DNA from: Negaprion brevirostris
Taxonomy: Eukaryota
Direction: 5' to 3'
Assembly (NCBI GenBank): GCA_030324005.1
Contig: JARDVH010000099.1
Coordinates: 63,736,167-63,800,166, forward strand
DNA length: 64,000 nt
Positions 14,031-34,185 of this stretch are shown here, piece after piece. Numbering within the stretch: position 1 is the first letter of the stretch; each line of letters begins with the position of its first letter. Below the pieces are notes generated by a model. It did not search any database, had not been told where the DNA came from, and saw nothing but the letters and a program-made list of their open reading frames with translations. The position numbers and the translations under genes are program-made.

Positions 14031-17000
14031 TTTTTGATCTTTAGGTTGCAAAATGCCAAACACCTTTTGAAATGGCATTGTTTTTCAAAACACAGGCTGC
14101 TTGTTAGAATATATTACTGGTTGTTTATAGGGATCTATCTGAAATTTACAATTATGTTGTAGCTCCCTGGACTTCTAAATTAGCTATTAGCTTTGGAAAG
14201 TGCCCAAATTTGAGGTGTTCAACTTTGTCCTACCTGAGGCAGATCACCTGCCTACTCTCTTCTGAGAGGAAAACAATGTCACAGAAATGAAATCTGTTGA
14301 GGGGAGGAAAAAGTTAATTGCGTTTTGTGCCAGAAGAATTGCAGATTTTCCAAATAATAAATAAAAATGAATTTGACAGAATAGCCTGAAGTTTCAACTG
14401 TGTAGCCTGTTTGATTTAAATGTGTTACTTGTGACATGGTTGTCATAAGGATTACCTAATCTCTTGGCACCAATATGTTTTCGGGAAAAATTGCACTTAA
14501 TCAGATGTGGTTTATTGTTGTACCAGTATGCTGCTTGTGTGATAACTCTCAATCTCAATTTGCTCCCATTACTGCCACAAAAATCTTGACTTTGTTGGAC
14601 GTTATTGAGGTTACACATGGACAAAACGATCCAAAATTTGGAAAGGGACATCTTAACCAAGTGTTTTTCGAAATTCACGAGCTCCTGTGGAAGTTTTGCA
14701 TGCACAACTTTTCAGATTTTTCGTGACAGCAATGAATGATTTGTGTATTTTGAAAATAAATTCAGGACTAGGGTTACTAAAATGTTAGATATCGATAGAA
14801 TGAAATGGTAATCTGTGTGGCAGTTTTGAGTGTTTATTAGCAAGAATGAACCAGCATGGTCATCCTTGATTGAGAAGCAGTTGGCTTTTAATTGTTCTGG
14901 TTGGCTGGTTTCTGAGGGTCAGTCGGATCAGCTGAGAAGGATTGAAGGATTCATGTATTAATTTGAGGTGGTGAAATGAGACTGTTACAAATTATAGGAA
15001 GTAAGCATCAGAATAAAATATAAAATGGGTATGGAATACTCAACTTCCATACTTTCACCCTGAGGTATGATTTGATAATTTTCATAAGTCTGGGCTAGTT
15101 GCCAGTTTGTCTAAAAATTAATTTAAATTAATCAAAAAAGGGTTTAAATAGTGTATGGTTAGAAGAATAACAAGTGCATGATAATCATCAGAACTGGTGG
15201 TAATTTTATGGTTTTAAAAAAATTTCATTCAGTGTATTATACTTCTGCACAAGTACTATGAAATGTTGAAAATTACATCAGTAAAATTGTAACTCTGAGA
15301 AATTACTGTGAAATAATTGAATTTAACCTCTCGAATTAAACAAGAGAAAATGTGAAGTAATTTTAATGGACTTTTCTCTTTCCTAAAGGTAGGATTGATA
15401 CTCGGGCTTTGAATTAAAGCATTTCAGATCTGAGATATTTGTCTGCCAAGCATTGCAGTTGACCCTTTTCACCATTCCGATTTGTTCATGTTCATATTGT
15501 TGCTGTAGAAATAATTTGTGTGCATTATGAAGCTGTCTGGATTTTTTTTTGTTTACAAGGTCTTAAATAGAATTTAATTGACTGGCATCTGTTTTGAACA
15601 AGCTTTGGGTCTGAGAAAAGGTCATTTTTTTTATTCCCTCTCAGACAGTGATTAGTAATCCTGCATCTGTTCTGTAGCTGTAGTTATGAGCGTCATTATC
15701 GAGAGAGGTTACTGACTTAATTGTTTGTGTACTGCTAATTAGCAGCAGTTTTTCATTAAGTGGAGAAGTTCTTTCCAAATAAACTATCATGCCATTAGTT
15801 TTAGATTAAGTGGAACTGCTGAGCGGCATCTGAATGTAAATATAACTGCAGCTAAAAAATATGTTCTTAACATGGTGTGACCACCCTTCAGAAAATAAGA
15901 TCTGCCTTGAAATTTAGAGATACTGGCTCCTGACGTAAAATTATGATAGAACTTGATTAGCCTTTTTTCTTCAATGATGGAATAATAAATGAAACAAAGC
16001 ATATCTACGTTGATTTATGACAAACTATTTTTCAGCAAAATGTCAGTGGTCAAAAAGGCAGAACTTTGCTTTCTTTTTTTAAGAACTGCATTGCACTGTG
16101 AAGAGTATGCAAAGCATGGTTTTAAAGGTTTAAAATGTGCAAAGTTTAAAATGTTTGAATCCAAGGCATAAAAGCCTGAATAAGCTTGTTGTCTTCAATC
16201 AAAACAAAAACACCTCTTGTTATTATGAAAAACATCCAGAAAAGTAGCTTTAAATTTAGTGTTATTTTTAGGCATATAGGTTGTTAATCATGTTTCCTGA
16301 ATGATCCTCCTTTTGTTTAATTACAAGACCAGTCTGACAAATAATCTTTAGACTGTAAAACAGCTTTGCAAGCATGTGCTGGTTTACCTTAAATTCTCTG
16401 TTCCAATTCCTGCCCACACAAAAAAATGTGTACATAAAAAAAAATGAATATGGAGTTGTTCTAGGGCAAAATAGGAAAAGTGGTGTGACTTTAATTTAGA
16501 GTGACTTAGCCCCATATATACATTTGTGCTCAAAGGGAAATCACTTTGGATTATCAGCACTGTAGCACACTGCATAAAATATTGAAGGCTACTTTACTTT
16601 CTAAAGGTGGCACTCCAGGCTAGAAGAGCTTTGAGCAAATTTTAAATTTACAAATAACTGACAGAGGTAGCTGATGAGCTGTGAACAGCATATGCTGCCT
16701 TACTTCGAAGATGTCGCATCAGCTGACATGTCCTTTCTTAATAACAGAATTGTTGCATTTGCCTCTGATGTGATTTAAGAGGAAGGGGAGCATTATTGTA
16801 ATATTGAGAGTGAACTGTAAAGTTTTGTTGTGTTTGAACCTATCTTTCAAGTTAAATTGAAAATAGCATGTAAATTCAAAGGACAGCTTCGTTAATTGTT
16901 TTACTTTTTTTGCACTGTGATTTACTTTTTCTCTCTTTTCGCAGTGAATGACAGGAAGTTAGAGGTGAAATATTTAAAGGAGCTAGATTCAGATCTGTCT

Positions 17001-25954: not shown

Positions 25955-26293
25955 GCGCGGCACAGTGGCATAGTGGTTAGCACTGTTGCCTCACAGCTCC
26001 AGGGACCTGGGCTCGATTCCCAGCTTGGGACACTGTGGCCAGAATTTTACCAACATGCTTGCCCCGACTCCGGGGGTGGGCTCGGCTCGGAGAATGGCAT
26101 TCTCCATTGGCCTCGGGCGGGATCATGCAAAACTTGGGCAGATGTGCCGGTAAAATTCCGCTCTGTGTGTGTGGAGTTTGCACATTCTCCCCATGTCTGC
26201 ATGGGTTTCCTCCAGGTGCTCTGGTTTACTCCACAGTCCAAAGATGCACGGGTTATTAGGTTTAGATTGGCTATGCTATTTTGACCCTTAGTG
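25955..26293 (+). mobile_element. HE1-like V-SINE interrupted by a MITE
   Basis: Head ggcatagtggttagcactgttgcctcacagc; resumes at tgtgtggagtttgcacattctcccc after 26163. Confidence 0.85.
26037..26163. mobile_element. 127-bp Harbinger-type MITE inside a SINE
   Basis: TIRs ggccagaattttacc / ggtaaaattccgctc; flanked by tgt...tgt. Confidence 0.72.
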
Positions 26294-27034
26294 NNNNNNN
26301 NNNNNNNNNNNNNNNNNNNNNNNNNNNNNNNNNNNNNNNNNNNNNNNNNNNNNNNNNNNNNNNNNNNNNNNNNNNNNNNNNNNNNNNNNNNNNCTTTGTG
26401 TTTGTGTGTGTGTGATTGGCTTGCTCACAGATTAAATAGCTAACTACATTCTGGTTTGGAGAAGGACATACGTCCATGAAAAAGAAGCTTCAAACTTGGT
26501 TGCGACCAACCAAGGAAGTGGAATACAGTGGAGCTGGTTCACCCTTTCTCACTTAGTCAGAACAATGGCAAATTTTATAGGTCAGGAGAAGTACAAAATG
26601 GTAGCAGTGATGGTTTACCCACTAAATTTAAATTGAAAACATGCTATGCTTGTTGTATTTAATTTTATGCCCATGCTCTAAGATTGTAGGAAATTATTAT
26701 AAGATAAGGCAGCTTGCCTTTTTTTAAGTTACTACCTATAAACAGCTGCACAGCTATCTTGCATGCAGTCATCAACATAACATGCATTTAATTTATTGTC
26801 AAAACTTTGCCTTTGCGAATAAGTTTGTCATGGTTTTGTTGTGCTCATGCTGTATCTGATTAGCCCTTTCTCATGCTGTTGAATGCCAAGTAATTCCATT
26901 TGATTTTAGAACTGAGGCCCAAAAAGTGTGATTTATAATCGTCTGTGATGCAAATGAGAATGAAACAGATTTTAACCTTAACAATTGCAGTGCATGTATC
27001 TTTTGTTAAGGGTTCTGTAAAAGTTCATGGTCAT

Positions 27035-27150
27035 GTCAGCTGTCCCTCAATTTGAGGATGATATCTATTCCGAGTTGAGAGTTTCTGCTGTGGGTCTTTG
27101 TGACCAAGCAGGTTGATTCTCACCTACAAACCTTTGGACATGTGGGCCGA
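27035..27150 (-). mobile_element. Probable RTE-type 3' tail fragment
   Basis: cagctgtccctcaatttgaggatga...gtgggtctt...gcaggttgattct; truncated by a gap. Confidence 0.4.
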
Positions 27151-28083
27151 GTGGGGGGGGNNNNNNNNNNNNNNNNNNNNNNNNNTTCTCTGCTCCTAAA
27201 TTGAACATTAATACCAATCTTTTACCAGTATAAGGGTCCTTCATTTTAGTTCCTGGAAATTTTTTGGGAATGCATTTTCAACTGCATATTTATGAAGAAC
27301 ATTTTAGGGGTATGAATTTGAATTTTCCTTGTGTTTGAGTTTTGTGATCAAGACTAGCATTTGGGTCAACTTAATGATTTAATTAAAATGGGAAGGAAGA
27401 ATAGTAGGAACTGCAGGTGCTCTAGCTGACATGAATTTGAGCAGTTAGAAACAACTGGTTAGTAAAAGTCTGCATTCCACTATCTACTAATAGATTAACA
27501 ATTCATTGTGTAAAGCTGCTGGTGAGGGAAATTGAAATAATAAGGAAAAATGCCTGACATAAAAACAGATTCTGGGAATGCAGAAGGGAGTCCACCCTAT
27601 GCAATCCTTGTTCCCACTGCCTTTCATCACCTAATTGCTTGTTCGTACAGTACAGACCCAGTCTGCTGCTTAGTATTGTTCACCCTGCTCCTCATCGAAT
27701 TGGTACTATTCTTGTCTTCCCGGCTAGCCTGTGCCGCATAGCTCTCATTCTGTTGCCCCAGTGCTGATGGCGTCGATCATCAGTCAGCTACAGGCCATTT
27801 TCATGAATACAAAATTAACCAAGCAGTTTAGAAGAGGAGGTGTCTTTTGATTATTTTGGTGACCGGACCCAATGTGATTTTTGACTTTGATCCAGTAAAT
27901 TTTTGATAAAGATTAAGCTGGACAATGTAGTGAAAGTTGTAATTGGATACTTTGTTTCAGAGAACTCGTAGTTCTGTTTTTTTAAAAAAACGCTTTTGGA
28001 TTGCTCTACACTTCATGTAAAACTCAGTTTGTTTATCAAGATTAATTGAAATATGATTCTTTATGTTCTGCTGCCCCCTGCAG

Positions 28084-28111
28084 GTCTAAAGATATTGATT
28101 TCCTCACCAAG
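28084..28111 (+). CDS. LRPPRC: LRPPRC 28-nt coding exon (exon 15 equivalent)
   Basis: ctgcag|GTCT...CAAG|gtaagt; (R)SKDIDFLTK; restores frame (phase 2 to 0) between neighbours. Confidence 0.9.
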
Positions 28112-28678
28112 GTAAGTGCTGACAAATAAATTCCTTTGGCTGCATTACAACGGTGCATATTTTAAACATCAATTTCTTATTTTCATCTTTGAAATGTGGT
28201 AAAATTTTGAGAGACATCGAAAGCCTTTGATTTTCTGCATGTAAATTTTCTTCTGCCTTTTAATAAGTCATTGATTCACTGCTATGAAGAGGTGTACTAT
28301 TTAAGTGGATTGCTTGTAACCCTTTAGTACATTCTTCTGTAATTAATTTAAAGCTGACACTCATCAAAACATTACTTTAAGCATTGTCTTTTTAAAAACA
28401 TTGCCACTAACTCAGTATTAGGATGGCCAAATATAATTTTGTTAGTAAGGAAGTGCCTGTCCTTGGAAGATGTTCACATTTTGTTGGGTTTTATTTCCTA
28501 GAGCAAGTTAGCTATTGAGCTTGTTCTGTGAGGCATTTTACAGATGAAATGCCACAATATACTGTTGATTAATACCTTTATAGAAAAGTGCTTTGTTATT
28601 TTGAGGATACAATTTCAAATACTGCTTGTTCTTGTGTTCCTCTATCACCTACAATATATTATTATTTTGTCTTCTCAG

Positions 28679-28736
28679 ATAACGGAATTGTTGTACAAAG
28701 ATGAACGTTATTGTCAGAATCCACCAGAACCGTCTG
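28679..28736 (+). CDS. LRPPRC: LRPPRC coding exon (exon 16 equivalent)
   Basis: tctcag|ATA...TCTG|gtagtg; ITELLYKDERYCQNPPEPS (human ITELLYKDGRYCQEPRGPT); 58 nt. Confidence 0.95.
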
Positions 28737-29270
28737 GTAGTGTTTCAATTTCCTTGATTGTAACTCGTCCACAAATCCGTTCTATCTAATGATGGGGCTC
28801 GAAGGATTACAGGAGTAACATTGATTGCTTTTTTTTTAAAGTGAAATTTTTAAAGTGTGTGGTCAGAAAAGCTTCAAGTATCTTTCCGCTCCATTGAGTT
28901 TTCTTATTAATCAAAAAGTTCAGTTGCTTTTGGATTGGTAGCTTTTTGATAATCTTAATTTTAAATAAGAAATTGATGGGTTTACTGAGAAGCAATAAGT
29001 GTTTGTGCCAAATATTGATGATGCAGTTATGATACATTGAAAGTATGTTCCTGTGCATCGAGAGTTTTTTTTGTCTTCTATTAGCATTCTTTGCACTGAG
29101 TTGTTTTATCGTGTATGCTGCTAAAGCAGCACAATCCACATGCCTCATTGATTGTTGCCATTTTTGACACTCGAACCTGAGCTTTTATACATGATTTGTG
29201 TAAGATTAATCTTGATAATGCAACAATCTCAATTTGTGGCATGATTATCTTTTTATTTCCTTTCTTGCAG

Positions 29271-29377
29271 AAGCTATTGGCTATTTTCTTTATAACTTGA
29301 TTGACAGCATGAGTGACTCTGAGGTGCAGGCCAAGGAGGAGCATTTGAGACAATACTTCCATCAGCTGAACAAGATG
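29271..29377 (+). CDS. LRPPRC: LRPPRC coding exon (exon 17 equivalent)
   Basis: ttgcag|AA...ATG|gtacca; (E)[35 protein letters not shown], almost identical to human; 107 nt. Confidence 0.97.
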
Positions 29378-29584
29378 GTACCATTTCATTCTAGCCACAT
29401 AATGCATGTCACATATGACATGTATCTATTATTCTTAAAAATGCTACTTTTAAGTACACGAGATCTCATTTAATGACCTGGCTGGAATTGTATAAGTAAA
29501 TTACATTTCAAGTTATTCCAGTTACAGAATTTCCACACATTTCTTTCAGTAGCATTTAATTTAAACTTGTTTTGTTTCTTCCAG

Positions 29585-29662
29585 GATATAGTAATCCCAG
29601 CAACTATCTACAGAGGAATTAGAAATTTGTTGGATGCTTACCACGTCCCTGAGTTAATCAAG
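29585..29662 (+). CDS. LRPPRC: LRPPRC coding exon (exon 18 equivalent)
   Basis: ttccag|GAT...AAG|gtagtt; DIVIPATIYRGIRNLLDAYHVPELIK; 78 nt. Confidence 0.96.
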
Positions 29663-32600
29663 GTAGTTTATGACATTCTTGTCTTTTCCTTCATGTAAAC
29701 AGATTTTGTTTTCTACAAGTGATGTACTATTATGTACTGATGTTGTACAGTTTTACGTATCTTTCCAAACTTGTATTTTACATAGTGGATTAGGAAACAA
29801 TGGCTGAATAAGTTAGTGCACCACAGGACTGGTCACTGATTAAAGAAAGGATTTGGTTTATTGTGATGTCCCTTGTGGGTGAAATAGCTTGTGTCCAATC
29901 CCTATCTAAGTTTATCGATGAACAGCAGATCCTTGAACTGGGTAACAACAGTCTTCTGACATTTGTGAACCCAAAGAAGTGACACCGTCTTTGAGAGGAG
30001 GCAACAAATTAGGAATGGAAGAGAGACAGAACAGCCACTTCTTACATTTCATCACCTGAAAGCCCACTTTGTCCTTGCATAGGCTATCGTGCAGACTAGG
30101 TTTCTGCATTACTTCTGATACTACTATTGTGAAGAATGAGGTTTATATACTTGACATGGGTCCATCCTGAAAGGCACTCAGCTGGTATAAATAATGTAAA
30201 AATGTCCTTTTGTATACAGAACAAATCTGGCCTAACACAGTGGCTCTTAAATTCCAGATCAACCCAACCTGACAGCCGAAAGTTATTAACCCACCTGAAC
30301 TAATGCCTATGTCTCTATGCATTTATGAAATGTTCGATATCTGGGACCAGCTTGGTAATTAGGACTGACATAGTAACATGTTTTTTCAGCAATGAAGAGT
30401 ATAATAATTTTTGAAAACAGTTTTCTCCCTCCTGATAGTGGGCTTACTTTGTGTTAAGTATATAGTCATGATTAGGTACAGGGCTGATCAGAAAATACAT
30501 AACTCTCCAATGTCACCAAAGACCTGTACTTCATCTAAAACCTAATGTTTTAATATTGCTGATTTTGAAGGCTTTTGAAGTGGCATTGCTTGTATCCTAT
30601 GTACCAGTATCCAGTCAGTATTGAGTTAGTTATTCCTGGATCAATAACCAGGCTGCTCCCAGATGCTGTGGTTATTTTTTACTTATTTTTATGGAGTCTG
30701 GACATTGCTGGCTAGGCCAGTATTTATTGTCTATCTTTAATTGCCCTTGAGGAAGTGACAATGAGCTGCCGCCTTGAACTGCTGCAGCCCATGTGGTGTA
30801 GGTACACCTGTGCTATTAGGAAGTGTGTTCCTGGATTTTGACCCAGATGCAGNNNNNNNNNNNNNNNNNNNNNNNNNNNNNNNNNNNNNNNNNNNNNNNN
30901 NNNNNNNNNNNNNNNNNNNNNNNNNNNNNNNNNNNNNNNNNNNNNNNNNNNNNNNNNNNNNNNNNNNNNNNNNNNNNNNNNNNNNNNNNNNNNNNNNNNN
31001 NNNNNNNNNNNNNNNNNNNNNNNNNNNNNNNNNNNNNNNNNNNNNNNNNNNNNNNNNNNNNNNNNNNNNNNNNNNNNNNNNNNNNNNNNNNNNNNNNNNN
31101 NNNNNNNNNNNNNNNNNNNNNNNNNNNNNNNNNNNNNNNNNNNNNNNNNNNNNNNNNNNNNNNNNNNNNNNNNNNNNNNNNNNNNNNNNNNNNNNNNNNN
31201 NNNNNNNNNNNNNNNNNNNNNNNNNNNNNNNNNNNNNNNNNNNNNNNNNNNNNNNNNNNNNNNNNNNNNNNNNNNNNNNNNNNNNNNNNNNNNNNNNNNN
31301 NNNNNNNNNNNNNNNNNNNNNNNNNNNNNNNNNNNNNNNNNNNAGAGGTGCCAGCCAAGCGACTGCTTTGCCTTGGGTGATGTTGACCTTCTTGAGTATT
31401 TTCGGAGCTGTGTTTTTCCAGGCAAGTGAAGGGTGTTCCATCAGATTCCTGATTTTTCTGAATGTCGTGGGGCGATGGTTAGATTCTTTCTCGTTACAGG
31501 TGGTCGTTGCCTGACACTTGTGTGGTGCAAATGCTACTTACCACTTGTTGGACTAAGCCTGGATATTGTCCAGATTTTACTGCATTTGGATATGGACTGC
31601 TGGAGCATCTGAGGAGTTTCGAATAGTGCTGAGCATGTGCAGCTTTCAGCGAACATCCCCAATTCTGACCACTTGTTAGAAGGAAGGTCATTGATGAGGC
31701 AGCTCAAGATGGTTGGAACTCCTGCAGTGATGTCCTGGAACTGAGATGGTTGGCCTCCAATCATCGTGACCATCTTCCTTTCTGCTAGGTATGACTCTGG
31801 CCAACGGACAGTTTTCTCCCTAATTTCCATTGACTCCACTTTTGCCAGAGCTCCTTGCTGCCACACTTGGTGAAATGCTGCCTTGATGTCATGGACAACC
31901 TCTGGAATTTAGCTCCTTTACCCATGTTTGAATCAAAGCTGTAACAATGTCAGGAGCTGAATCACCCTGGCAGAACTCCAACTAAATGTCAGTGAATAAG
32001 TTATTGTTAAATAAATGCCACTTGATGACATTGTTGGTGATCCCTTCCAGCACTTTACTGGTGATGAAGAGTAAACTGAGTAGTAATTAGACAGTGGGGT
32101 TTGTTCTTTTTGTGGACTGGACGTACTTGGGCAATTTTGCACATTGCCAAATAGATGCCAGTGTTATAGCTGTTCTGGAATAGCTTAGCAAGTCCTGGAG
32201 TACTTTTGCTGGGAAATTGTCAAGACCTGTAGCCTTCGCAGTATCCGGTGCGTTCAGTCGTTTCTTGGAATGAATCAAATTGACTGAAGACTGACACCTG
32301 TGTTGCTGGGAACCACCAGAGGAGGCTGAGATGGCCGAAGATCATTGTGAATGCTTCAGCCTTATCTTCTGCAGAAATGTGCTGGGCTCCTCCATCTTTC
32401 AGGTGAGGGATTTGTGGAGCCTCCCCGTCCATTAAGTTGTTTAATTGTCTACCATTCGTGACTGGATGTGGCAGGACTGCACAGCTTAGATCTGATCTGT
32501 TGATTATGGAATCATTTGGCTCTATACATGCTCCTTATAGCAGTCGTGTAGCTTCACCAGGCTAGCACCTCATGTTTAGGTATGCATGGTGTTGCTCCTG

Positions 32601-33484: not shown

Positions 33485-34185
33485 TGTGATGATACTGTGG
33501 TATTGTTGCTATATTTTATATTTAAGGCAGGATTGCTTTAAGAGACAGTGTTTTGTTACAAGAGTTGATTTGGTTGGTAAGTATGCTGCAGATGCTAAGA
33601 ATGCAGGCTGATAATTGATTTTACCTAGGAATGTGTTACTTTGGATGGATCTTTTGTTTATTTAGGTTCTCCTGGGGTTTGAGTAGCATTTTAATTAGGT
33701 TGATTGACAGAGATGGTCATGCAATTAATAGGAGGAGCTAAGCTTGCAGGAAGGAAAGTGTTTCAGTTTCATTTTTAACTTCAAGCAGTTGCCAGAGGAA
33801 AGCAGTGCCTTTCTCTCTTGCTGTCATTCTCTCACACTCCTATGCCCCTAGTGGTGTCCTGAAAGCTTCACTTCCACCGCCCCCCCCCCCAGAAGTGTTC
33901 TGAAAGTTCCAAGGTAGGGAGATGTTTCCTTGATTGGAATTCATAGTGATAAGTTAGCAGTTCAGGCTTGCATCTTGTCATGTTTAAGCATTGTTTAACT
34001 GTTAAAGGTTAAGCTCATTCACTTGTTATAATTTAACTATNNNNNNNNNNNNNNNNNNNNNNNNNNNNNNNNNNNNNNNNNNNNNNNNNNNNNNNNNNNN
34101 NNNNNNNNNNNNNNNNNNNNNNNNNNNNNNGGGGAGTCATCTGACTTCATAACATACATTGGAGTTTCTGAACCATATCTGAACA
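33485..34185. mobile_element. Solo LTR (Gypsy-type) inserted in the LINE 5' region
   Basis: Begins TGTGATG, ends GAACA; 4-bp TSD ATCT at 33481-33484 and 34186-34189; removing it restores ggtggtccatctggcttaattcc. Confidence 0.75.

Follow-up and report, generated by a model that had tools for sequence, protein, structure and literature searches.

The 107-nt coding exon of LRPPRC and the ~80 intron bases that follow it may well form an ancient regulatory element, whose predicted role is that of a developmental enhancer working at long range on the SIX3 side. The exon is unusually conserved between sharks and mammals, whereas gar, bowfin and teleosts lack this conservation, and the adjoining intron is apparently conserved too, so that a second job of this DNA is likely; indeed, a second constraint on the exon at the DNA or RNA level is very probable, and the sequence leans towards an element of the enhancer type. 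The window (the whole stretch of DNA analysed, 64 kb) represents the middle of LRPPRC on the + strand, with 13-16 exon matches in tblastn searches with shark and ray proteins, of which those of sharks match best, and the full extent of the gene is ~63.71-63.84 Mb on contig C99. The features discussed below are the following:

28646-28678, + strand: second conserved intronic block, proposed from bird and lizard read-through peptides; it abuts the 58-nt exon and lies outside the region singled out in the initial annotation
28679-28736, + strand: preceding LRPPRC exon, 58 nt, slowly evolving in lobe-finned vertebrates, with relaxed constraint in teleosts
29271-29377, + strand: LRPPRC coding exon, 107 nt, bounded by an AG acceptor and the donor GTACCA; core of the putative constrained element
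29298-29307, + strand: exact PBX:PREP/MEIS DECA motif across Leu-Ile-Asp-Ser codons; putative binding site
29378-29584, + strand: intron after the 107-nt exon, 207 nt, opening with the non-consensus GTACCA
29378-29457, + strand: probable conserved 5' part of this intron, ~80 bases, proposed from read-through peptides
29405-29422, no strand: palindrome with 7-bp arms, inside the conserved intron block
29585-29662, + strand: following LRPPRC exon, 78 nt

The 107-nt exon, which we take to be exon 17 following the numbering of the initial annotation, is borne out by its splice sites, including the GTACCA donor already described there, and by its protein match. The exon peptide is identical to human LRPPRC 579-614 (PDB 8any_A5) at 34 of 36 residues, as had been proposed, and the 58-nt and 107-nt exons together make up an in-frame pair of 165 nt. 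A micro-exon of LRPPRC at 28084-28111 (28 nt), missed by tblastn, can be read off the sequence. The flanks are free of repeats, as claimed, with none from 26278 to 30708 in a self-BLAST of the window, and the 421-base stretch around the exon has a single match in its own genome in a search that skips very common words. No paralogous copy of the 107-nt exon was found among 33 genome matches, in a stricter first look that can miss remnants. Part of the stretch is carried by 21 of the 24 rows (13 studies) of a sequencing-run search, four organisms sharing 0.91 of its words; since the taxa are coded and are probably close relatives, these matches were given no evidential weight. Of four sequencing runs compared with 27300-29260, three gave no matching contig, and a contig from the fourth (X12) fits 28461-28626 with 19 other letters and 5 gap letters in 171, which is at most a weak hint of similarity there; missing coverage in such data carries no weight. 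Elsewhere in the gene, the exon for catshark residues 286-337 matches contig C140 (13908213-13908368, - strand) at 90% identity and is absent among the C99 matches, reflecting either an assembly misplacement or a moved exon copy.

The amino-acid constraint on the exon differs sharply among clades. It was measured in an alignment of 89 LRPPRC proteins, hand-picked at one per genus after isoform-like models and redundant mammals were dropped, and drawn from the best 120 of 853 and the best 120 of 864 hits to queries from outside the exon; the set holds 11 cartilaginous fish, 33 lobe-finned vertebrates, paddlefish, gar, bowfin, 42 teleosts and zero birds. The mean pairwise distance over the exon is 0.074 in cartilaginous fish, 0.072 in lobe-finned vertebrates and 0.410 in teleosts, the corresponding values for the whole protein being 0.160, 0.316 and 0.306. 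Relative to the rest of the protein and on a fixed tree, the exon evolves at a rate of 0.19 in the 33 sarcopterygians (the lowest of 35 protein windows), 1.18 in the 42 teleosts and 2.21 in the two holosteans (gar and bowfin), and the log2 teleost/sarcopterygian rate ratio is 2.65 for the exon and between -0.95 and 0.91 for the other 34 windows; in this tree the lobe-finned vertebrates do not form a single clade, and a truncated isoform has probably distorted three N-terminal windows in the cartilaginous fish. The preceding 58-nt exon behaves likewise, with a p-distance of 0.18 in lobe-finned vertebrates as opposed to 0.45 in teleosts. Conservation "far above the other exons", as initially claimed, holds in the comparison with tetrapods; it does not hold among cartilaginous fish, where the relative rate of the exon is 0.53 with other windows slower, and where lower p-distances are found for two other exons (0.033 and 0.043, compared with 0.074).

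Identity between catshark and human is 0.94 in the exon, 0.83 and 0.79 in the next exons and 0.62 over the whole protein, while the exon identity to catshark is 0.92 in paddlefish, 0.69 in gar and 0.53 in bowfin. Invariant positions number 18 of 36 in the 44 cartilaginous and lobe-finned species, scattered across the entire exon with no centring on the decamer, and 3 of 36 in the 42 teleosts, the invariant fractions of the whole protein being 0.19 and 0.21, respectively. Because the lobe-finned set favours slow proteins, fast tetrapod proteins were also checked in an independent search, and the exon exceeds the whole protein in these as well (alligator 0.86 vs 0.52, Hyla 0.75 vs 0.45, Aquarana 0.78 vs 0.44). 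In amphioxus, a hemichordate and a starfish, identity does not rise over the exon (0.19-0.31 vs 0.35-0.37). In alligator and neobatrachian frogs (P0305, P0308, P0449), LRPPRC as a whole has evolved at a strongly raised rate, with 44-52% identity to catshark vs 61-73% in most lobe-finned vertebrates. Further along the protein, a second segment (catshark ~1105-1148, C99 ~63821306-63823403) shows the same contrast between slow lobe-finned vertebrates and relaxed teleosts; it has a log ratio of 1.06, the next best after the exon pair, and could possibly be another overlapping element.

Could the protein alone account for this pattern, through a partner-binding surface relaxed in neopterygians, with the decamer as a by-product of codon choice? 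We regard this as highly improbable. The evidence from the exon lies entirely at the amino-acid level and its central residues are fairly conserved in teleosts and partly in amphioxus, as such a surface would predict; however, the two conserved intron blocks are left unexplained, the constraint begins and ends near the exon borders, and no partner contact is named for the region of residues 579-614 in the passages of PMC11637978 on LRPPRC. These passages have the named LRPPRC helices contacting mS39, mS31, mRNA or SLIRP, and by residue numbering 579-614 would fall in the distal helical tail, away from the named contact helices. Protein constraint does contribute, since core residues are partly kept in teleosts.

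Conservation of the introns was read from database proteins that run into them, with frameshifts allowed. Proteins extending past the 107-nt exon with intron-encodable peptides are rodent-like or come from birds, turtles and a lizard: the rodent-like ones are two Logan proteins clustering with murid rodents and a third similar one, an unnamed protein resembles bird and turtle models, and the rest are bird, turtle and lizard gene models. Four of these read-throughs fit 15/25, 13/25, 15/25 and 17/30 codons with scores of 37-50, the null maxima being 15-17 in ~584 random GT sites; the rodent-like P0002 accounts for 15 of 25 codons and a score of 43 (null maximum 17, 584 GT sites) and P0007 for 17 of 30 codons and a score of 50 (null maximum 16, 582 GT sites). 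The fit extends to ~29453-29457, with an implied identity for P0002 of at most 83% over 75 bases, an upper bound, while four control read-throughs at three other donors score 0-2, the null level. The 33 bases before the 58-nt exon fit at 19-25 of 33 vs null maxima of 13-15 (1499 sites). On the acceptor side of the 107-nt exon 1 of 14 codons fits, and conservation was not detected there. As read-throughs fit both intronic stretches and the 58-nt exon is also relaxed in teleosts, the constraint appears to fall into two blocks ~0.5 kb apart.

The arrangement of these blocks invites a different explanation, the main rival to an enhancer, namely an RNA-level element that tunes how the weak donor is used, or how often the 58-nt and 107-nt exons are skipped together, and thereby adjusts the level or isoform of LRPPRC; we consider this possible, if rather doubtful. 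Both blocks flank the exon pair from outside and abut splice sites, as splicing control would have it, the inner acceptor lacks detectable conservation, the weak donor is common to rodents, birds, turtles and a lizard in the read-throughs, and three Logan proteins terminate within the 207-nt intron. Genes for RNA-binding proteins often carry splicing-linked ultraconserved elements, and LRPPRC is RNA-binding. The intron also has a slightly better fold than shuffled versions of it (z -1.9; equalled by 8 of 200), but some pairs of the hairpin are lost in the rodent read-through and the window has no Rfam match, so that, with a marginal fold, a structured RNA is disfavoured. Furthermore, none of the 62 variant-length entries deletes the exon or the pair, although many of them are fragments and frameshifting skips leave no protein; as protein databases miss NMD isoforms, this count covers protein-yielding isoforms. 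Read-throughs are found at other LRPPRC introns too (P0482, P0483, P0484), so those at the 207-nt intron are not special, and no paper joining LRPPRC with intron retention at exon 17 was found.

At the DNA level, the exact decamer annotated at 29298-29307 is present, as are the HOX-like 8-mer at 29289 and the AP-1-like word at 29309; DECA is the motif of PBX:PREP dimers according to passages of PMC6023610. The exact decamer occurs twice in the 64 kb vs 0.33 expected (4 of 100 shuffles reach two) and its degenerate form four times in the window vs 1.01 expected. The second exact copy, at 33701, sits in an interspersed repeat (33560-33860; 1287 candidate copies, the best 70-83% identical) and is thus ruled out as a partner element. 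In a long intron, at 16920-16960, a polypyrimidine tract and a CAG stand right before a degenerate decamer and look like a cryptic acceptor. Given the residues and the codon usage of this gene, the odds of the exonic decamer are ~1%, a post hoc figure from 489 codons with small counts. Judged from amino acids only, residues compatible with the decamer are found in 10 of 11 chondrichthyans, 33 of 33 sarcopterygians and the single paddlefish, and in neither of the two holosteans and 12 of 42 teleosts, i.e., in 44 of 45 non-neopterygian vs 12 of 44 neopterygian species. Decamer-breaking residues occur in 25 of 310 non-neopterygian-type sequences, a redundant set from few lineages: Asp to Gly in alligator and a bullfrog cluster, Ser to Asn in a chimaera and two others, and Ser to Glu in two sequences. 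The changes seen in Hyla, Leu to Val and Ser to Arg, can both leave the decamer intact.

The other words fare less well in this set: 69 of 310 sequences differ in the residue that underlies the HOX-like site, and the CCAAT-like (NF-Y) word is not conserved, since it requires an Ile found in just 18 of 310. An NF-Y box and a HOX-like site are therefore ruled out as conserved partners. The palindrome at 29405-29422 is present as annotated but is neither special nor conserved, as palindromes this good are found in 44 of 152 bins of 420 bases and it is not intact in rodent or sauropsid read-throughs; it is ruled out as a special feature on both counts. Two more palindromes lie upstream of the exon (29202-29213 and 29116-29131), of a size common in the window. 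One of them holds inverted TAATCT words, which are homeodomain-like. With a decamer copy in a repeat and palindromes common by chance, motifs alone prove little, and the DECA motif is fairly regarded as a candidate site, not as the explanation of the constraint; if the element is an enhancer, the chances that this site is functional are about even.

The linkage to SIX2 and SIX3, the possible targets named in the initial annotation, is confirmed on the shark contig: a SIX3-type gene lies on C99 at 1.03 Mb from the exon and a SIX2-type gene at 1.20 Mb, the subtypes being called from the homeodomain N-terminal tetrapeptide by a rule that we assume to hold. A PP2C gene (presumably PPM1B) is located between the exon and the SIX3-type gene, ~0.26 Mb from the exon, while the LRPPRC 5' exons are ~56 kb from it. 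ZFP36-family, THADA-family and MyTH4 genes are found 3.4-3.9 Mb off, beyond SIX2, and are presumably ZFP36L2, THADA and PLEKHH2, as judged from Pfam family and the synteny that we assume. In human, we take the genes of this side to flank the 3' end of LRPPRC, and we likewise assume the human LRPPRC-SIX gene order; since the ZFP36, THADA and MyTH4 genes are relocated relative to that human order, the stable neighbours are those of the SIX3 side, and the ZFP36L2/THADA side is disfavoured as a target by its distance and its position. Across 59.9-63.8 Mb of C99, the LRPPRC-to-SIX2 block is apparently inverted relative to ZFP36L2/THADA/PLEKHH2 against the presumed human order. A CEP170-family gene is ~10.7 Mb away, and a search for DLIC gave no C99 match among the 16 matches listed.

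In trout, lrpprc lies ~0.5 Mb from six3a according to a table in PMC12058032, so the conserved host-target linkage of a SIX3 genomic regulatory block is found both on the shark contig and in the trout table; as trout retains this linkage, the loss of constraint does not track a loss of linkage. Passages of PMC5805373 describe a CTCF boundary between Six2 and Six3 in mouse, with the Camkmt side falling to Six3, and since this boundary separates the two genes, SIX3 is favoured over SIX2 as a target. The same passages give no far end for the Six3 domain. A distance of 1 Mb between exon and SIX3 is far and counts against SIX3 as the target. If the element is an enhancer, SIX3 would still be the likeliest target, and a somewhat probable one.

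A transcriptional element whose target is its own host LRPPRC or a nearby gene (PPM1B, for example), and not a SIX gene, is quite unlikely in our estimation. Both of these genes lie much closer than SIX3, the constraint is lost in teleosts despite the retained six3a linkage (table in PMC12058032), and UCNEbase names its clusters for putative targets (PMC3531063, in part) and has a cluster named LRPPRC, which counts against a SIX target. However, most elements this deeply conserved are thought to serve developmental transcription-factor genes, according to passages of PMC3531063.

According to the SIX3-side enhancer reading, the 107-nt exon, which encodes 36 residues of a mitochondrial mRNA chaperone, would at the same time serve as a DNA element. 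The DECA motif would be occupied by a PBX:MEIS/PREP dimer, one among several factors distributed over exon and intron, and their binding would keep the codons as well as the weak splice donor from changing. From there the element would reach past PPM1B to the SIX3 promoter, with LRPPRC as a bystander gene held within the SIX3-side block, and loss or rewiring of this function in the ancestor of gar, bowfin and teleosts would have released the amino acids. Passages of PMC11034925 document that teleosts have broadly lost old vertebrate non-coding elements. Taken in its entirety, i.e., as a TALE-bound SIX3 enhancer acting over 1 Mb, gnathostome-old and dropped once in the neopterygian stem, the scenario is unlikely. 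The initial annotation had proposed a second constraint from a TALE/HOX enhancer: the second constraint gains from the clade-specific release and the intron conservation in read-throughs, the TALE part is compatible with the data, and the HOX-like site falls with its variable residue. A search for remnants of the exon at duplicated teleost six2/six3 loci, suggested at the same time, is unlikely to work, because the constraint is already relaxed in gar and bowfin, before the duplication.

If the element is an enhancer, the exon would offer a natural experiment for which both a candidate motif and a candidate target can be named, its residues being fixed in sharks, paddlefish and tetrapods but at liberty to change in gar, bowfin and teleosts, and the regulatory domain of SIX3 would reach ~1 Mb. 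The clinical reading of variants in the 107-nt exon would also be affected, as synonymous or missense changes in this Leigh-syndrome gene could act on forebrain or eye development independently of mitochondria. The loss would moreover be datable from the host protein alone, opening the way to a protein-only screen for hidden exonic enhancers. If it is instead a splicing element, a key mitochondrial mRNA chaperone would prove to be controlled at a level not described before.

Enhancers within coding exons (eExons) form an established class, DYNC1I1-DLX5/6 being one example. Birnbaum, in 2012, reportedly described exonic enhancers acting on neighbouring developmental genes on the basis of chromatin marks and transgenic assays. 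The LRPPRC element resembles them in lying in a coding exon of an unrelated host gene, with a developmental homeobox pair within ~1 Mb and a constraint that appears to go beyond protein needs, as suggested by the release of residues and the intron conservation read from peptides. It differs in being known from sequence alone, while eExons were shown by marks and transgenics, and, unlike them, it continues past the donor into intron sequence, with its constraint relaxed in gar, bowfin and teleosts. No literature match was found for LRPPRC as an exonic enhancer or as a conserved non-coding teleost exon, related papers yielding just a mention of a UCNE and remarks on linkage, and 'LRPPRC' is absent from nine supplementary files of PMC13216554, which may list by coordinate or id.

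The locus may already be catalogued as the ultraconserved non-coding element (UCNE) LRPPRC_Trystan of UCNEbase, which is described as partly intronic and partly exonic in passages of PMC11217675, UCNEs being defined by at least 200 bp at at least 95% human-chicken identity (PMC3531063, in part). That element belongs to the same gene, and its cluster name implies at least two elements, as compared with the two blocks found here; its function is not given in the passages of PMC11217675 and PMC3531063 on it, and no paper giving an LRPPRC element a function was found in a literature set consisting mostly of papers free of subscription. The regulatory exonic remnants of Dong 2010 (PMC2831330, whose main text names neither LRPPRC nor SIX2 or SIX3) likewise belong to a bystander gene and answer to both a coding and a regulatory constraint, the two being separable during fish evolution, but there the regulatory copy survives without the gene, while LRPPRC keeps the coding copy and sheds the extra constraint, as early as in gar and bowfin. 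With the TALE elements in passages of Ladam 2018 (PMC6023610), the LRPPRC exon shares the exact 10-base DECA motif, but those sites pair with an NF-Y CCAAT box ~20 bp off, whose LRPPRC counterpart is not conserved, and a conserved neighbouring NF-Y or PBX:HOX site was not found. The Shh endoderm enhancer MACS1, in an intron of Rnf32, is similarly of gnathostome age, lies in a bystander gene and has lost its ancestral activity in a teleost lineage; it differs in being non-coding, functionally proven and still alignable in euteleosts (passages of PMC5296767). Set beside these systems, the LRPPRC element appears to be a real candidate exonic enhancer of a known class, with dual constraint and a clean evolutionary switch, and is either new or uncharacterised within that class.
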